A model generated the notes under the pieces. It saw nothing but the letters and a program-made list of their open reading frames with translations, had not been told where the DNA came from and made no database searches. A stretch of 12,286 nucleotides of DNA from Elusimicrobiota bacterium (GTDB taxonomy: Bacteria; Elusimicrobiota; Elusimicrobia; Elusimicrobiales; UBA9959): NCBI GenBank assembly GCA_027340875.1, contig DAIENX010000056.1, positions 1-12,286 on the forward strand, written 5' to 3'. Position 1 is the stretch's first letter. The number at the start of each line of letters is the position of its first letter. Positions 5,119 through 12,286 of the stretch are shown piece by piece. Position numbers and translations under genes: made by a program.

Positions 5119-7005
5119 TCAGGCGGCCGTTTTCTCGACGCGGCGGCCCAGCCAGCGGGCTGACGCCGCCGCCATCTTTTCTGGCGTAAGTTCGACATCG
5201 TCATAAAGCTCGTCCGGCTTACCGTGCTCGACGTAAGAATCCGGGATACCCAGCCTGAGCAGGCGCTGATCAATGGATTCTGCGTTCAGGTACTCCAGCA
5301 CGGCCGAGCCGAAGCCCCCTGCCAGCGCGTTGTCCTCCGCAGTTACCAGCGGGCCGGCGGCCGCCAGCTCGCGCAGCAGGGCCCCGTCAAGCGGTTTGGC
5401 GAAACGCATGTCCGTCACGCCCGCGTCGATGCCGGCGGCTTTCAGCAGCTCGGCGGCCTTCACTGCCGGGTGCACCCTGTTGCCTATGGCGAGGAAATTC
5501 ACGTCGCGGCCGCGTGACAGGACCCTGCCCTTGCCTATCTCCAACGCGCGCGGCTCCGGATCCATCGTCACGCCGTAGCCCTTGCCGCGCGGATAGCGCA
5601 GCATGGCCGGCCTGCCGCAGGCCAGCGCCGTGGCCAGCATGTGCTGCAGCTCGTTCTCGTCGGCCGGCGCCATGACCACCACGTCGGGTATCATGCGGAA
5701 CAGGCCGAGGTCGAAGACGCCGTGGTGGGTGGGACCGTCCTCGCCGACTATGCCGGCGCGGTCCATCGCTATGACCACGGGCAGCTTCTGCAGCGAGATG
5801 TCGTGCTGCACCTGGTCGAACGAGCGCTGCATGAAGGAAGAATAGATCGCGGCGACAGGCTTCATGCCGTCGGCGGCAAGGCCCGCCGCGAAGGTGACCG
5901 CGTGCTCCTCGGCGATGCCCACGTCGTAATAGCGGCGCGGGAAAGTGTCGCGGAAAAGGTCCAGGCCGGTGCCCTCCGGCATAGCGGCCGTTATCGCGCA
6001 GATCTTGGGGTCCTTCTTCGCCAGCTCAACCAGCGTGCGACCGAAGACGGCCGTGAAAGTGGGCGCCTGCTTGCCCTGTCCGGCGGCTTTCTTCGCCTCG
6101 CCGGTCTCGATATCGAACTTAGGGGCTCCGTGGAAGTTGGTCGGGGCCTCCTCGGCGGGCTCGTAGCCGCGGCCCTTCTTGGTGACTACGTGCAGCAGCA
6201 CCGGGCCTTTAAGGTTCTTCACGTAGCCGAGCACCTCGGTCAGCTCCGCGAGGTTGTGCCCGTCGACAGGCCCGAAATAGGTGAAACCCATCTCCTCGAA
6301 GATCATGCCCGGGAAGAACAATACGCGCGCCCTCTTGGCCACGCGCAGGATCTTCTTGCCCCAGAACTGGAAGCGGTTCAGGAAAAGCTCCGCCTTGCGC
6401 TCGGCGTCCTGCACGGTGCCCAGCGTCAGCATCTTAGTCAGTATGTGGCCCAGCCGGCCTACGCGCTGAGAAATGAACATCTGGTTGTCGTTCAGGATGA
6501 CCAGCAGGTCCGTGCCCAGCTGGCCGACGTTCTGCATGGCCTCCCAGGCCATGCCGCCGGTCATCGCGCCGTCGGCGACCACCGCCACGACCCGGTGGGG
6601 ACTGCCTGCCTGGTCGCGCGCGGCGGCCATGCCCGCGGCCGCGGAGAGGGAGGTGGAGGCGTGACCCGCTCCGAACGCGTCGTATTCGGACTCGTAGCGT
6701 TTCAGGAAGCCGGACAGGCCGCCTTTCTGGCGGATGGTATGGAACTTGTCGGCTCTGCCGGTGAGGATCTTGTGGGCGTAAGCCTGGTGACCGGTATCGA
6801 AGATTATCCGGTCCCGGGGGGTATCGAAAACATAGTGTAGGGCCAGGATCAGGTCGGCCGCGCCGAGGCTGGAGGCCAGGTGGCCTCCTGTGCGGCTGAC
6901 GCCTTCGACGATAAGCTTGCGCACCTCGGCGGCCAGGGCCGGGAGCTGGGCCACGGTAAGCTTTTTAATATCCTCGGAGCCACGGATGCCTTTTAACAGT
7001 TCCAT
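5119..7005 (-). CDS. dxs: 1-deoxy-D-xylulose-5-phosphate synthase
   Basis: Motifs GGHLASSLG, FDTGHQAY, GAGHASTS, DGAMTGGMAWEA...ILNDN, GPVDGH, ITAAMPEGTGL, DVGIAEEHAV, YSSFMQR, DRAG and DGPTHHG. Follows ispA as usual. The ATG at 7005 lies 1 nt after the ispA stop and is preferred to GTG 7017. Confidence 0.97.
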   Translation of the reverse strand: MELLKGIRGSEDIKKLTVAQLPALAAEVRKLIVEGVSRTGGHLASSLGAADLILALHYVFDTPRDRIIFDTGHQAYAHKILTGRADKFHTIRQKGGLSGFLKRYESEYDAFGAGHASTSLSAAAGMAAARDQAGSPHRVVAVVADGAMTGGMAWEAMQNVGQLGTDLLVILNDNQMFISQRVGRLGHILTKMLTLGTVQDAERKAELFLNRFQFWGKKILRVAKRARVLFFPGMIFEEMGFTYFGPVDGHNLAELTEVLGYVKNLKGPVLLHVVTKKGRGYEPAEEAPTNFHGAPKFDIETGEAKKAAGQGKQAPTFTAVFGRTLVELAKKDPKICAITAAMPEGTGLDLFRDTFPRRYYDVGIAEEHAVTFAAGLAADGMKPVAAIYSSFMQRSFDQVQHDISLQKLPVVIAMDRAGIVGEDGPTHHGVFDLGLFRMIPDVVVMAPADENELQHMLATALACGRPAMLRYPRGKGYGVTMDPEPRALEIGKGRVLSRGRDVNFLAIGNRVHPAVKAAELLKAAGIDAGVTDMRFAKPLDGALLRELAAAGPLVTAEDNALAGGFGSAVLEYLNAESIDQRLLRLGIPDSYVEHGKPDELYDDVELTPEKMAAASARWLGRRVEKTAA

Positions 7006-7006
7006 A

Positions 7007-7936
7007 TCAGTTCTCACGCCTGAGGACGAACCCCGCTATCTCCGCGAGCGCCTCCTTCGGGGCGCCGCGGCCTTTCACCGAGGAAAGGCGGGAGAGGGCC
7101 CGGCTCAGGAGCTCCGCGGCTTTAAGCCTGGCCTCGCCCACTCCGAGCAGGGAGGCGTAGGTGAGCTTGCGGTTGCGGGCGTCGCTGCCGCTCTTGCCCA
7201 GCTTCTTCTTGTCGACTACCACGTCAAGGACGTCGTCCGCGACCTGGAAGCAGAGGCCTATCTCCCGGCCGAAGGCCGACAGCGCGCGGAAATCCTTTTC
7301 CGGGGCTCCGGCGAGCGCGGCTCCCATCTCGACCGCGGCGGTTATCAGGTCGGCGGTCTTGTGCAGGTGTATATAGGATAGGAGGTCCAGCCCAGAGCGC
7401 CGTTTGGCCGGGGTAAGCCTGCCGTCGAGGAAACCCTCGGCGTCCAGGTCCGCGGCCTGGCCGGAGACCATTCCCCTCGCCCCGGCCCTGGAAGAGAGGA
7501 CTGAGGCCGCCTTCACAAGGGCGGGCTTGGTCACCCGGGCTGGGTACCTGGAGGTCAGCAGGACCGTGAAAGCGTCGGTCAGCAGGGCGTCGCCGGCAAG
7601 TATCGCCAGCGCCTCGCCGTAGACCTTGTGGCTCGTCGGCCGGCCCCGGCGCAGATCGTCGTCGTCCATCGCGGGCAGGTCGTCGTGGACCAGGGAGTAG
7701 GTGTGGACCATCTCCAGCGCGCAGGCCGCGGGCAGGATGTCGGAAGCCTTGCCGCCGAAGATCTCGTAGGCCGCCCCCATCAGGACCGGGCGAAGGCGCT
7801 TGCCGCCGGCCGCCAGGGAGTAGGTCATGGCTTCGGCCAGGCGCGGCTGGGCGTCTTTAAGGCGCGAGATATGTACCGGAAGGGCTTTGTTGACCGCGGA
7901 GGCTCTTTCAGCGATGTACTTCTCTATGTCCATCAC
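7007..7936 (-). CDS. ispA: Polyprenyl (farnesyl/geranylgeranyl) diphosphate synthase
   Basis: Motifs GGKRLRP, EMVHTYSLVHDDLPAMDDDDLRRGRPT (first aspartate-rich motif), AILAGDALL, GMVSGQ..D, KT, FQVADDVLD (second aspartate-rich motif), GK and KLTY. Start is GTG 7936 or ATG 7933. Confidence 0.95.
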   Translation of the reverse strand: MMDIEKYIAERASAVNKALPVHISRLKDAQPRLAEAMTYSLAAGGKRLRPVLMGAAYEIFGGKASDILPAACALEMVHTYSLVHDDLPAMDDDDLRRGRPTSHKVYGEALAILAGDALLTDAFTVLLTSRYPARVTKPALVKAASVLSSRAGARGMVSGQAADLDAEGFLDGRLTPAKRRSGLDLLSYIHLHKTADLITAAVEMGAALAGAPEKDFRALSAFGREIGLCFQVADDVLDVVVDKKKLGKSGSDARNRKLTYASLLGVGEARLKAAELLSRALSRLSSVKGRGAPKEALAEIAGFVLRREN

Positions 7937-7988: not shown

Positions 7989-9023
7989 CTACCAGATGAA
8001 CTGAACACCGAGACGGTGGGTGGTGCCGAGCGTGCCGTAGTCCAGGTACGCGTAGTCCACCCGGACGCCGCGCATCAGGCTGTTGCTGTCGGACAGGCGG
8101 TCGAAGTTCATGCCGAAGCCGCCGCAGACCCGCGATCCGGAGTCCTTGTGGGTCTTGTAGCCCAGCCGCAGCTGGAACATCTTCATGATATCCATCTGGA
8201 GCCCGGTGGAGGAATTATAGGACTCGTCGCGGTACTTTACCAGGTCGGAGGCCACGGTGAAGATTATGATGTCGTTGACGGTATGGAAATCCTTGGCCAC
8301 GCCGAAGCGCAGCGAGGACGGCAGCGGGGAGGACTGGGAGATGAACTTACGTCCCCCTCCCAGATTGAGCACGGAGGCGCCTACGTGAAAGTGATGCGGC
8401 AGGATCAGCGTGGCGCCTCCGTCGAAAGCTACGGAAGCCGCGGATTCTCCGGCGAGCTCCTCGCTGATGCGCTTAACAGTGCCGCCGACCGCCACGCGGT
8501 ATACCTTGGGGCGGTAGTCGCGCACCGGCTCCACCCTGGTCCACGGCGGAGTGATCAGCATCGGGTCCAGCTTGCCGGCGTCGCGCTTGAAATTGGGCCA
8601 GCTCTGCGCGAAGGAGAAGGCGAGCATGGTATGCGAGGTCGAGGTCTTGCCTATCGGCATGTCGTTCTGGTCGTAGGCGTCGATATCGCCGCTGGAAAGG
8701 GAGGAGTAGGCGGCCGCGGCCGTACCGAAAGGGAAGCGCCAGGCTACCGTCAGGTACTCCTGCTTCACCCCGATGAGGTACTGGTTGTGAGACCCGGAGA
8801 AGGAGGAGTAGCTGAGCAGGCCCAGCCCGGCGGGGTTGTACAGGATGGAATCGGGCCCCACCATGGCGGTATAGGCCTCGCCCATGGCGGAAGGGATGGA
8901 GGCCACCGGGATCTTCAGGAAATTGGCGGAGGTGGTGCCCGCCCCGGCGGCGCCGGCGGGACGCGGCCAGGCCGCTGTCAGGGCGGCTGCGCAGAAAGCG
9001 AGTATAGCGGCGCGGGTTCTCAT
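7989..9023 (-). CDS. PorV/PorQ-family (UPF0164-like, FadL-type) outer-membrane beta-barrel protein
   Basis: Signal peptide MRTRAAILAFCAAALTAAW...AGA. N-terminal family motif GTTSANFLKI...AMGEAYTAM...ILYNPAGL. Alternating beta-strand pattern, LRLGY, and C-terminal VDYAYLDYGTLGTTHRLGVQFIW ending in an aromatic residue. ATG 9023 is preferred to TTG 9029. Confidence 0.85.
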   Translation of the reverse strand: MRTRAAILAFCAAALTAAWPRPAGAAGAGTTSANFLKIPVASIPSAMGEAYTAMVGPDSILYNPAGLGLLSYSSFSGSHNQYLIGVKQEYLTVAWRFPFGTAAAAYSSLSSGDIDAYDQNDMPIGKTSTSHTMLAFSFAQSWPNFKRDAGKLDPMLITPPWTRVEPVRDYRPKVYRVAVGGTVKRISEELAGESAASVAFDGGATLILPHHFHVGASVLNLGGGRKFISQSSPLPSSLRFGVAKDFHTVNDIIIFTVASDLVKYRDESYNSSTGLQMDIMKMFQLRLGYKTHKDSGSRVCGGFGMNFDRLSDSNSLMRGVRVDYAYLDYGTLGTTHRLGVQFIW

Positions 9024-9066
9024 AAACAAGGCGCTGCCGGAGCGGTCTGCGCTCCAGCGGTATTAT

Positions 9067-9112: not shown

Positions 9113-9350
9113 GTCGCTCCGTGTTCCCCCCGCTCGCAAGAGCGGGTGCAGCGGAAGAGGACCTTGTGCCTCCGCCCGCGAAGAACTCGTCGCGCACACA
9201 GTGCGCTCCTCAGACAATCTTCGCGGCCGACCTAATGATAGGCGGTCCGCTCCGGCACTGCGGCCCTGCACCCGCAAGCTCGCGTGGGCAACACGTCGCT
9301 CCGGCACTAACCCTGCGCCGGAAAGCTCGCGCGGGGAACATGTCGCTCCG
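9113..9350. repeat. Structured intergenic element (nested inverted repeats, duplicated arm, flanking direct repeats); MITE/REP-like or ncRNA
   Basis: Perfect pairings: 9142-9151/9266-9275 (10 bp), 9176-9184/9218-9226 (9 bp), 9192-9197/9201-9206, 9122-9129/9333-9340 (8 bp). Imperfect tandem units 9248-9296 and 9297-9343. GTCGCTCCG occurs at 9113, 9295 and 9342. Confidence 0.65.
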
Positions 9351-9421: not shown

Positions 9422-10672
9422 TCACTTGATCCACTTCATGAAGTCGTCCCATTTGCTGTCCTGCGCCCACTGCAGCCCGTCGTAAGCAGAGTTGTAGGCG
9501 TTGGGCAGGTACACGGCGAGGCCGAAGGCGTTGGCGTACTTCGAACCCACGGCCCTGTTGTGCGTTATCACGCTGCCGGAGAGGAAGGACAGTATCTCCC
9601 CGCCCTTCGCCTTGACGGCCGGGTCGGACGAGGCGTCGTCCACCAGCTTGACGAAGTGATACAGGTCCTTGTTGCTGGAATAATAGAACGCCTGCGCCTT
9701 GGTGCGGGCGTTCCTGGCGGCGGCGGTGTCGCCGGAAGCCATCACGGCGGAGACCCAGCCGTCGACCATCCCGGCCAGACTGCCCAGCTCGGAGGTCTTG
9801 ACGGCCGACTGCGTGGCGCCCTGGTTTATGGACTGGTAGTGGTCGGCGTAGGAATTGACCATGACCTTGGAAAGGGCCGCGGCCTCCATCGACGGGGAGG
9901 CGGTCAGCTTGTCCAGCCAGGTGTTGTAGGTGTAGCCGTCGCCGGGCTCGGTCTCCTCGGAGGCCACGATGTAGTCGGCCCCGGAGCGCGCCTCGTAGGC
10001 GACCTCCATCATCTGCATCAGGCAGGCGTCCATCGACAGAATGTCGATCTTGCCGGTGCGCTCCAGCACCTGGCGGAGCTGCTGCGTGGTTATGTGGCGG
10101 CCGCTCTCGTCGTCGTAGGAGATGCCCTTGCCGGCGGCTCCGTCGAGCTTGCTCCAGCCGGAGCCGTGGTTCCAGATGACCAGCACGTAATGCTGGGCAG
10201 GGAACTTCTGCTGCGACCAGGCCACGAACTCGACGAGATTCTCCCAGTTGCCCATATCGGATTTGGGGATAGACATCAGGACGGGGGAAGTGATCTTGGA
10301 AGTGTTATTGTCCTTCTTTATCAGGTACCGGCGGGAACCGGTCCAGTCGCCGTCGTCCGAGGAATAGCCGCGGATGCGCCCCAGCTCCGCGACGATGTTC
10401 ACGTCCGGGGAGGACCCCACCATCTCCATCTCGTTGACGTCCTTGAGACCGAAGGACTCAAGGTTGTTCTTGGCGTTCACGTAGACCATCACGGTCCACT
10501 TCGCCTGGGCTTTCTGGTCGCCGGGGAGCGGCACTACGGCCGCCTCTGCGGATGAGCCGCGCAATTGCGCGACCAACTGCGGAACGCTGCCCTGCTGGTC
10601 GAAGGTCACCGCCGCGAACGCGCCGGTGGCCGTGGCCAGGCAGAGAAACGCGCCAAACAACTTTTTCGTCAT
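9422..10672 (-). CDS. Secreted clostripain-related cysteine peptidase (family C11)
   Basis: Signal peptide MTKKLFGAFLCLATATGAFA. C11 motifs WTVMVYVNAKNNLE, DVNEME.VGS, DMG...L..FV.W....FPA.HYVLVIWNHGSGW (catalytic His codon 10168-10166), DILSMDACLM..EVAYE (catalytic Cys codon 10024-10022), YIVASEETEPGDG, GLAVYLP and WDDF. Strong SD AGGAGGAG before the ATG. Confidence 0.92.
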   Translation of the reverse strand: MTKKLFGAFLCLATATGAFAAVTFDQQGSVPQLVAQLRGSSAEAAVVPLPGDQKAQAKWTVMVYVNAKNNLESFGLKDVNEMEMVGSSPDVNIVAELGRIRGYSSDDGDWTGSRRYLIKKDNNTSKITSPVLMSIPKSDMGNWENLVEFVAWSQQKFPAQHYVLVIWNHGSGWSKLDGAAGKGISYDDESGRHITTQQLRQVLERTGKIDILSMDACLMQMMEVAYEARSGADYIVASEETEPGDGYTYNTWLDKLTASPSMEAAALSKVMVNSYADHYQSINQGATQSAVKTSELGSLAGMVDGWVSAVMASGDTAAARNARTKAQAFYYSSNKDLYHFVKLVDDASSDPAVKAKGGEILSFLSGSVITHNRAVGSKYANAFGLAVYLPNAYNSAYDGLQWAQDSKWDDFMKWIK

Positions 10673-10776: not shown

Positions 10777-10805
10777 TTGTCCGCCGCTGGGCTACTTTAT
10801 ATAAT
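10777..10805 (+). promoter_or_regulatory. Putative sigma70 promoter of the FliF/FliG-like fusion gene
   Basis: TTGTCC (10777-10782), 17-nt spacer, TATAAT (10800-10805), followed by an AT-rich patch. Confidence 0.6.
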
Positions 10806-10857: not shown

Positions 10858-12286
10858 ATGCTCAGACAATACTTAAGATCCATACCGCTGCTCCTGCTGC
10901 TGTGCGCTCCTCTTGCCGCGCAGACCTCCAGCAAGACCTCCCTGGAATCCAGGCTGGCGCTGGAAAGTTCGCTCGAGAAGCGCGTGCAGATGGTCCTCTC
11001 GGAGGCCCTCGGCACGGACGACGTCATAGTGATGATCTCGGCCGAACTGCAGGAACAGAACAAGAAGGCCCTGGAGATACTCCCGGGGGTTCCGCAGAAG
11101 GACAAGATGGGGGAGCCTTCCCTTTCCAGCAGCCTTACGATGGTCAAGGAGATCTCCGCCACGCTGATACTGGACAAGAGCCTCCCGGACGAGGACGTGC
11201 AGCTGGCGCGGAAGCTGGCGGCCGGCCTGCTTGGCCTGCCCGCCGACCGCCAGGACCTGATAACCATAGAGAAGATGGACTTCCGCAAGACGAGACCGAT
11301 AAAGCCCTCCGATTTCCTGTCCCCCCCGAACCTCTGGAGCATAGTCTGGATACTGGTGGTGGCCGCCCTGGTCATATTCACCGTCTCCGCCTTCCTGTCG
11401 CCGCTCTCCAAGAGCGCTGGCGCCTTCGTCGAGGCCTTCAGCGCGAAAGCCGCCGCCGGAGAGTCCTCCGCCGCGGCGCGCTCCGAGCGCCGCGAGGAAG
11501 CGGAATCCGGGGAGTCACAGGCCAAGCAGGCAGAGACCGCGCCCCAGGTCCAGGCCATAGAGGGCCGCAAGCCCCCTTTCTGGTTCCTCTCCCCGGCCCA
11601 CCTCGGCAGCCTTGCCTTCATCATGAAGAACCGGCCGTCCGAGGACCTGACTATACTGCTCAGTTACGCGCCGGAAGAACTGGCGGTTAAGCTTTCCGAG
11701 GCGCTTTACCCCAAGAGCACGGAGGCGCTGGCCGCGCTGCCTAAGGTGGCGCTGATGCCGGAGTCACGCATCAGGGGACTGGAATCCGAGATCCTCTCCT
11801 CGCTGGATTACGTGGTGGGAGGCGAGGACAAGACCGCGGACATACTCAGCGCCCTCGATGAGTCCGTGCAGGAAAAAGCCCTGGCCGCGTTCACCCGCCT
11901 AGACCCGATGGTAGCGAAGAAGATGAAGGCCGCCGTAGTGAGGCTCTCCAACGTGGCGGACCTGTCCCCGGCCCATGCCCAGGCCCTGGCCCGCAGGCTT
12001 CCGATGCGCGTCATAGCGGCGGCGCTGAAAGGTTCCCCTTTCGCGGCTACTTTCATTGCCAAGCTCGCCGGCGGCATGCAGGACCGCCTGAAGCAGGAGC
12101 TGGAGCTCACCCGAGACCTCCCCGCCGAGGCCTACAAGGCCGACCGCGCGAAGCTCGTGGACGCGATGCGTCAGATGAGCAGGGAAGGCCTTGTCTCGCT
12201 GAAGCCCCAGGGTCCGGCCCCGGTAAGGCCTGCTGGCGCCGTGCCCCCGGCCGCCGCCAAGCCAGGCGCCGCACCGCGCCCCGCCG
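10858..12286 (+). CDS. Exported single-TM protein with a FliF/SpoIIIAG-like ring domain and FliG middle + C-terminal domains (FliF-FliG-like fusion); 3'-truncated and absent from the ORF track
   Basis: Hand translation of frame 1 from ATG 10858 (GGGGG 7 nt upstream; in-frame TAG at 10834) gives at least 476 codons with no stop and strongly GC3-biased codons. Segments: MLRQYLRSIPLLLLLCAPLAA/Q (signal); LESSLEKRVQMVLSEALGTDDVIVMISAEL; VKEISATLILD..LPDEDVQLARKLAAGLLGLPADRQDLITIEKMDF; LWSIVWILVVAALVIFTVSAFL (TM); PPFWFL...LAFIMKNRPSEDLTILLSY; GGEDKTADILSALDESVQEKAL...DPMVAKKMK; IAAALKG...RLKQELE...MRQMSREGLVSL; then a Pro/Ala-rich tail. Confidence 0.85.
   Translation, partial: MLRQYLRSIPLLLLLCAPLAAQTSSKTSLESRLALESSLEKRVQMVLSEALGTDDVIVMISAELQEQNKKALEILPGVPQKDKMGEPSLSSSLTMVKEISATLILDKSLPDEDVQLARKLAAGLLGLPADRQDLITIEKMDFRKTRPIKPSDFLSPPNLWSIVWILVVAALVIFTVSAFLSPLSKSAGAFVEAFSAKAAAGESSAAARSERREEAESGESQAKQAETAPQVQAIEGRKPPFWFLSPAHLGSLAFIMKNRPSEDLTILLSYAPEELAVKLSEALYPKSTEALAALPKVALMPESRIRGLESEILSSLDYVVGGEDKTADILSALDESVQEKALAAFTRLDPMVAKKMKAAVVRLSNVADLSPAHAQALARRLPMRVIAAALKGSPFAATFIAKLAGGMQDRLKQELELTRDLPAEAYKADRAKLVDAMRQMSREGLVSLKPQGPAPVRPAGAVPPAAAKPGAAPRPA

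Follow-up and report, generated by a model that had tools for sequence, protein, structure and literature searches.

The stretch of DNA described here, the window, makes up contig C98 in full (12,286 nucleotides) and comes from an Elusimicrobiota genome (G000; 2.8 Mb, 92% complete, 112 contigs). Its right end is occupied by a gene in which a domain like the third ring-building motif (RBM3) of FliF, a single transmembrane (TM) helix, and the middle and C-terminal domains of FliG (FliG-M and FliG-C) are confirmed to lie in one chain. The frame is on the forward strand, as are all the features given for it below, and runs from an ATG at 10858 to the end of the window at 12286, 476 codons without a stop. 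A preliminary description made from the sequence alone had proposed such a frame, of at least 476 residues, and had read it as a FliF–FliG fusion forming a one-gene ring or rotor. The frame and the fusion are real, but the fusion is pared down: there is no RBM1 or RBM2, no FliF-C/FliG-N unit, and only a short collar insert.

The exported part agrees with the outline first given for it, a signal peptide, a domain of about 120 residues and one TM helix. By hydropathy there is a hydrophobic stretch at aa 11–21 and a single internal helix at aa 162–180 (11341–11397), and the family alignment adds to the case for a signal peptide, likely cleavable, at aa 1–21 (10858–10920). Exactly one internal hydrophobic segment is found in 81 of the 85 family members longer than 420 aa. 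The span from signal to TM helix is only about 120 aa, which leaves no room for RBM1/RBM2, and the family for those domains, YscJ_FliF (PF01514), was not found in the fusion protein or in five genomes searched, with positive controls. What fills the span is a periplasmic split ring-building motif of the FliF-RBM3/SpoIIIAG type (aa 22–143; 10921–11286), identified by structure and profile matches. In the full-length AlphaFold model (mean predicted local distance difference test score (pLDDT) 74.6, predicted template modeling score 0.40), these residues match FliF RBM3 (6scn_A) at Z 11.6 with a root mean square deviation (rmsd) of 2.6. With the domain modeled alone (pLDDT 73.7), Salmonella FliF (Z 11.5) and Vibrio FliF (10.7) are on top, followed by PrgK (10.0), EscJ (9.9) and SpoIIIAG (8.8), and folds not belonging to secretion systems start from Z 8.0. 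Taken over both models, the match to 6scn_A is Z 11.5–11.6 and rmsd 2.6–3.2 across 99–103 residues. A profile of the domain finds four PDB matches up to an expectation value (E) of 10, which are three FliF and SpoIIIAG, the best at E 0.003. The predicted fold is therefore the one that had been recognized by eye. The Pfam model YscJ_FliF_C falls below its cut-off in the window protein (aa 94–142, E 0.012); in the C111 paralogue both it (E 7e-8) and FliG_M (E 4e-13) are above theirs, and the RBM3-type domain is retained in all full-length paralogue groups examined. A low-confidence insert in the domain at about aa 65–95 carries a conserved PG(V/I)P motif, and the beta-collar insert is far shorter than in FliF, with 28–53 aa between landmarks. 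A four-copy complex prediction of the domain scored 0.00, which is outside the calibration of the tool and is used neither for nor against a ring.

The cytoplasmic part begins after a charged, poorly conserved linker that is predicted to be disordered (aa 201–238; 11458–11571). The linker lies at the place of FliF-C/FliG-N, and the fusion has the TM helix and this linker in place of that unit. Then follow FliG-M (aa 239–317; 11572–11808), a Gly-Gly hinge (G321-G322; 11818–11823) with glycine in 80 and 84 of the 85 family members, and FliG-C with a modified torque helix (aa 347–447; 11896–12198), in the order that had been proposed. The model matches FliG-M (4fq0_D) over aa 239–317 at Z 11.0 and rmsd 1.9, and FliG-C (1qc7_B) over aa 360–446 at Z 11.6 and rmsd 2.0. 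Pfam places FliG_C at aa 347–447, above cut-off (E 9e-10). A profile built from 44 family sequences matches 14 FliG-containing PDB sequences, best of all a solved FliG-MC (E 5e-32). Its match to MgtE is weak (E 0.62 against 5e-32 for FliG), and an identity as MgtE-N or generic helical repeats was rejected on that comparison. A Pro/Ala-rich disordered tail (12211–12286) is cut by the contig end.

The gene is thus open at the end of the window, and its full length is likely about 506 aa. The last 13 bases of C98 are the first 13 of reverse-strand contig C63. A relative, L002, is collinear with C98 followed by reverse C63 (alignment at 5605–7113 and 7100–16792), and the same gene order is contiguous in L002 and L006 and in the orthologous loci described below. 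We infer the join from the overlap together with this contiguous order. No contig from four DNA runs of one study bridged it with 31 letters on each side, though both ends were covered. Read across the join, the frame likely continues into reverse C63 and stops about 30 codons in, 20 bases before motA. Over the first 450 codons there are 220 base differences from L002 (protein 87% identical), divided 46/17/157 among the codon positions. Since 157 fall in third positions, the gene is, on this pattern, coding and under purifying selection. Upstream, a candidate sigma70-like promoter (TTGTCC-17-TATAAT; 10777–10805) agrees with the earlier proposal of one; the site search found 2 such sites where 0.3 were expected, and the TATAAT is retained in all five relatives compared. 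Of 7997 candidates scored in a homologue search, 97 proteins were returned, and those named by organism are from Elusimicrobia, except one labeled 'bacterium'.

The genes directly downstream show that this is not a one-gene machine. On C63, after the inferred join, the fusion gene is followed by motA, two motB genes and a gene for a tetratricopeptide repeat (TPR) protein, rather than by a canonical flagellar operon. Facing them on the opposite strand are genes for a protein of ~640 aa and a kelch/sorting-domain protein of 1537 aa. The order fusion-motA-motB-motB-TPR characterizes the window's own group of orthologous loci (L037–L057), where motA comes directly after the fusion gene in all 21, two motB genes are present in 20, the TPR gene in 20, and the ~640-aa protein in 17. 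For a wider view, 80 loci were picked for spread and contig room from 150 listed matches (183 in all), and their genes were called and clustered. Of these, 58 contain both motA and motB, and in 38 motA is immediately next. The MotA proteins score best to the flagellar MotA/PomA/MotP models (E 1e-45 to 1e-65, below cut-offs). The C63 genes encode a MotA-type protein with the cytoplasmic torque region and MotB-type proteins with plug, channel Asp and OmpA-like domain; judged by these features, they are a flagellar-type stator.

The contact residues of both partners can be followed through the family. We take K264 and R297 to be torque positions of FliG and EHPQ to be its FliM-binding motif. E. 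coli numbering was mapped by motif and spacing, and the R90/D288-D289 and E98/R281 pairs come from the accessible text of PMC12505986. In FliG-C of the window protein, K391 and E414 are retained, while the positions of R281, D288 and R297 hold G406, Q413 and P422. Of 85 family members, 65 have K or R at the K264 position, 48 an acidic residue at D288 and 46 a Glu at D289; the FliM-binding motif has mostly lost its His and Gln. Two arginines, R410 and R419, hardly vary among 44 close homologues and might act as substitutes. MotA has a basic residue at R90 in 54 of 62 proteins, and E98 is mostly Gln. A joint loss of MotA E98 and FliG R281 was considered as co-evolution, which was dropped because Gln is also at E98 in the phylum's two flagellar MotA. 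The channel Asp of MotB is retained in 83 of 105. In tandem pairs it is always present in the first copy (38 two-gene loci, scored DD, DN or DS), and both copies at the window's locus have it. By these residues, the stator looks functional and the rotor surface altered.

We asked how the gene is distributed in 201 Elusimicrobiota genomes drawn evenly from the phylum. The family profile matches 72 of them, or 69 after removal of three single weak matches (E 1e-15 to 1e-17) in flagellated genomes, one of which (L128) was confirmed as an ordinary FliG and the other two presumed so. Flagellin, FlhA and FliMN_C are each above cut-off in the same 5 of the 201 genomes, including 2 of the 69 carriers, and none of the three was found in the other 67. 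The non-flagellar setting first proposed holds for the genome at hand as well: searches with positive controls, in an assembly that is 92% complete, gave no flagellin, FlhA, FliM/N, FliP, rod/hook or FliF-N. FliP and rod/hook proteins are present in one of five genomes tested, the flagellated G064, whose flagellar cluster encodes an ordinary FliG of 334 aa and which has two fusion genes elsewhere. MotB-plug matches occur in 78 genomes, 71 of them shared with the 72 profile-matched genomes (71 of 72 in one direction and 71 of 78 in the other, related genomes not being independent), and 4 of the 7 unshared matches are weak. Two large families are nearly without the fusion gene (0 of 58 and 1 of 63 genomes). 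These are apparently the gut-symbiont families, and gut-symbiont Elusimicrobiota families are described as non-motile in the accessible part of a preprint (bioRxiv 10.1101/2022.07.08.499144).

Carriers have up to about five paralogues. The present genome has four full-length copies (C98, C30, C111, C76) and one TM-FliG copy on C28, along with five MotA-type genes and six MotB-plug matches. The C28 copy (G000:C28:93-962; L121) is a 289-aa TM-FliG(MC) paralogue without a periplasmic domain. Two copies of a flbD-motA-motB region, G000:C81:1-5600 and C30:1-5038, are 91.6% identical and may come from a second strain binned with the first or from recent duplication; flbD is present in one paralogue group. 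A quick tree of 88 FliG regions, with no outgroup and an unresolved backbone, has several paralogue groups that span families, and sets the two flagellar FliG apart on a long branch. Outside the phylum, going by Atlas cluster labels only, the family extends to Cloacimonadota, Bdellovibrionota, Bacteroidota and Thermodesulfobacteriota.

Other recurrent neighbors include barrel genes. PorV/PorP-like genes occur in 58 of the 80 loci, sorting-domain genes in 57, kinase/receiver genes in 29 and FecR-like genes in 11. In 52 of 80 loci, a PorV/PorP-like gene is no more than two genes upstream and in the same orientation, compared to 33 of 2315 genes (1.4%) of this genome; the loci are related and do not amount to 80 independent cases, and the linkage holds in several paralogue groups. 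The linked barrels are mostly long, 49 of 53 being at least 475 aa; TPR tails, and in some cases LysM tails, are present in the long ones that were scanned. Of these 53 barrels, 40 are preceded by a sorting-domain gene. In Flavobacterium johnsoniae, the gliding adhesin SprB is held by the PorP-like SprF (PMC9143113). Upstream of the TPR-bearing paralogue operons there are cyclic di-GMP (c-di-GMP)-I riboswitches in 7 of 7 loci scanned (L081, L088, L091, L096, L098, L104, L107), in tandem in three loci; one is also at G000:C99:152-230. None was found in 14 loci of other paralogue groups. Signaling by c-di-GMP is often tied to motility and adhesion. The ~640-aa protein of the window's group (L117:14455-16374; G000:C63:55954-57873) has a signal peptide and is conserved; it has no Pfam or NCBIfam match and falls only in unnamed Atlas clusters. 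Its C-terminus can be read as barrel-like from a terminal alternating pattern and a final Phe.

These barrels appear to be part of a larger type-IX-like repertoire in the phylum. The genome encodes a 1784-aa SprA-like protein (G000:C14:47514-52868; L120, L129) with a partial match to TIGR04189 (E 1e-39, below cut-off). Its gene is single-copy and stands head to head with two genes that look LptF/G-like by eye. There are also 27 PorV-like genes and 21 sorting-domain proteins, 16 of which are beside a PorV-like gene. The PorV_fam model is above cut-off, and the C-terminal sorting domain models (type A/B) are near or above theirs. SprA-like genes are matched in 180 of the 201 genomes and PorV-like genes in 190; in the two rotor-poor families, SprA-like matches occur in 56 of 58 and 45 of 63 genomes. 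GldM had no match in the 201 genomes and GldL/GldN none in five, though the control genomes were silent as well. The phylum appears to have a type-IX-like outer membrane system without a recognized PorLM motor, and small genomes of symbiont size have it too.

We proceed from what was observed: the domains of the protein, the order of the genes, the co-occurrence with MotB, and the failure to find flagellar filament, export or switch genes. These observations make it likely that the single-chain fusion is a rotor subunit and the MotAB next door its stator, constituting a non-flagellar rotor–stator pair. That the output of this motor is coupled to outer membrane barrels we consider somewhat likelier than its opposite. 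The whole, in which an ion-driven rotor and barrels together move surface proteins, is proposed tentatively, with ring, rotation, coupling and purpose all conjectural. It could operate as follows. Sec export would place the RBM in the periplasm and leave FliG in the cytoplasm. The RBM domains would pack into a small S-ring-like ring and so align a ring of FliG. Peptidoglycan-anchored MotA5B2 units, held by the OmpA-like domain of MotB, would turn on ion flow and push on FliG-C. Since there is no FliG-N, FliM or FliN, the rotor would lack a CheY switch and probably turn in one direction. The link from ring to outer membrane would be made by periplasmic TPR proteins, or by the TPR tails of PorV/PorP-like barrels. 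The barrels would carry large type-IX-like sorting-domain proteins, which the motor would move or pull, and the most likely purpose would be surface attachment or surface motility. On this proposal, held no more firmly than the preceding one, the free-living Elusimicrobiota possess a family of minimal flagellum-free rotary motors, TPR-geared to type-IX-like barrels and moving adhesins.

Several observations weigh against this proposal. At the rotor–stator interface, 62 of 85 family members have Gly at the R281 position and only 7 a basic residue, and R297 is lost, with no R or K among the residues listed there; the family thus retains just half of the classic charge pattern of a rotor. In 18 of 38 pairs, the channel Asp of the second MotB is replaced by Asn or Ser (for example, L046:10721-12611 and L068:10989-12429), which suggests in turn that the stator may be asymmetric, with two different B subunits. 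The fetched stretch lacks motA in 22 of the 80 loci. Only 16 of the 69 carrier genomes yielded CheW, so chemotaxis is not tied to the rotor. As to the coupling, PorV-like genes are common (25–53 matches in each of five genomes), and the partners of the window's own group are not a PorV-TPR but a separate TPR protein and ~640-aa, FecR-like and sorting-domain proteins, often encoded on the opposite strand. No riboswitch was found in seven loci of the window's group, nor in the window, L002, L006 or L117. Of the genomes that lack the rotor, 108 have a match to the SprA-like translocon, in a few cases a weak one.

The last point bears directly on an alternative in which the module energizes type-IX-like secretion, with the ring and MotAB replacing PorKN/PorLM and driving cargo through the SprA-like translocon. 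The SprA-like protein, the many PorV-like genes and the sorting-domain proteins of this genome suit such a role. GldM, GldL and GldN gave no match, with silent controls. An obligatory energizer was our first reading, and it was downgraded because translocon and PorV-like genes are present in most genomes that have no rotor. Moreover, there is one translocon gene but several rotor paralogues, and the two are on different contigs in this genome. A role limited to some very large cargos is still conceivable; as a whole we regard the energizer as unlikely. Similarly unlikely is an arrangement with no spinning ring, in which MotAB tug on the FliG of monomers or small oligomers and the TonB-like pull opens a barrel or relays a signal. 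The lost R281 and R297 charges, the lack of FliM/N, the short beta-collar insert, the FecR-like genes in 11 loci, the kinase/receiver genes in 29 of 80 and the second MotB often without channel Asp are all compatible with pulling. However, the RBM3-type domain is kept in all full-length groups, its best structural matches are large ring proteins, and FliG-M, the Gly-Gly hinge and FliG-C, which pack between subunits in flagellar rings, are all retained. The genome also has separate TolQR-like genes (C110).

Two further explanations do without the motor. A self-assembling scaffold was the role first suggested for the protein; in the first explanation it would be a static SpoIIIAG- or SctJ-like ring supporting a channel, with the adjoining stator genes serving something else. 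The matches of the N-domain to SpoIIIAG, PrgK and EscJ (Z 8.8–10.0) and the 22 of 80 loci with no motA in the fetched stretch could be so explained. We think it very unlikely, given that motA is the adjoining gene in all 21 orthologues and in 38 of the 80 loci, that presence tracks MotB across genomes, and that FliG is the known stator contact (PMC12505986, in the text accessible). Finally, the gene might have been left behind by a lost flagellum, or might belong to a flagellum whose remaining genes the assembly lacks. The genome is 92% complete in 112 contigs and five genomes of the phylum are flagellated, but 67 of 69 carriers yielded no flagellin, FlhA or FliMN_C, and flagellated G064 has its own 334-aa FliG plus two fusion genes elsewhere. 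The gene is moreover under purifying selection and has diversified into several paralogue groups, and we give this explanation hardly any weight. The rotor–stator pair remains our preferred reading.

The remaining features of the window lie to the left of the fusion gene. A clostripain-family peptidase gene (9422–10672, reverse strand) is divergent from it; this gene is kept in several relatives and is absent at this place in L002. Between it and a PorV/PorQ-family barrel gene (7989–9029, reverse strand; NF033709 above cut-off) is a dispersed repeat of ~150 bp (~9130–9285), with copies 75–81% identical on at least six other contigs. The barrel gene is ahead of a run of prenyl-synthase, dxs, LOG and AmmeMemo radical SAM genes. 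In another locus, a flavin mononucleotide riboswitch (L119:724-849, reverse strand) precedes a run of riboflavin synthesis genes named by eye.

We know of FliG–MotA contact only from flagella. The locus offers a candidate of few genes, expressible in E. coli, for testing a minimal rotary motor (RBM3-TM-FliG plus MotAB), and it bears on the origin of the flagellar motor and on small-motor design. It also points to a type-IX-like outer membrane system in a phylum outside Bacteroidota. If the proposal is true, the motor would be a novel type of surface motility or envelope machine, and would show in living cells that the flagellar torque core can work with no type III export system. The preprint cited above reports, in its accessible part, many motAB, flbD and fliG homologues of unclear role in non-flagellated free-living Elusimicrobiota, and its main text, as far as available, does not mention the fusion (bioRxiv 10.1101/2022.07.08.499144). 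Elusimicrobia are likewise unmentioned in the available main text of PMC12505986, PMC12199754, PMC13277936 and PMC13104615. We found no description of this fusion or rotor–stator system in a literature search whose coverage excluded most subscription papers.

The torque core is like that of the flagellar motor, yet it is not a flagellum, and it fits no described system. With the flagellar core (FliF MS ring, FliG, MotA5B2/PomA5B2) it shares the RBM3 fold, the FliG-M/hinge/FliG-C series, a flagellar-type MotA, MotB with plug and OmpA-like domain and, in one paralogue group, flbD. It differs in being one chain with a signal peptide, a short collar and changed torque-helix charges; in having two different motB genes and several paralogues per genome; and in that RBM1/RBM2, FliF-C/FliG-N, FliM/N, export gate, rod, hook and filament were not found here. 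SpoIIIAG and PrgK/EscJ share the RBM fold (Z 8.8–10.0), but are static rings without FliG domain or stator. Engineered or mutant FliF–FliG fusions of Salmonella and Vibrio (PDB 8z4d) demonstrate that one chain can form rings; unlike the protein here, they are laboratory products with almost complete FliF and FliG and are part of a flagellum. The preliminary description knew fusions as Salmonella lab mutants, but a natural one has been published. It is found in the Chlamydiaceae, is tied to the injectisome, has ~330 aa and two TM helices, and has no SpoIIIAG-like domain and a FliG-M-like region only (Bergeron 2016, PMC4768692, accessible portion). It is likewise a natural FliF–FliG fusion in non-flagellated bacteria, whereas the protein here, comparing architectures and not sequences, has one TM helix, an RBM3-like domain, both FliG-M and FliG-C, and stator genes. 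The type IX/gliding system of Bacteroidota is alike in the putative SprA-like translocon, PorV/PorP-like barrels and type A/B sorting-domain cargo, often adjoining; here, the motor would be MotAB with an inner membrane FliG rotor, the outer membrane parts also occur without the rotor, and GldL/M/N are unmatched, with the control searches silent too. The AglRQS motor of Myxococcus is of the TolQR class and has neither FliG nor an RBM ring, whereas the stator here is of flagellar type with a peptidoglycan-binding domain. AglRQS is nevertheless, in the available text of PMC13104615, a non-flagellar 5:2-type ion motor with one A and two different B subunits that acts across the envelope, as we propose for the motor described here.

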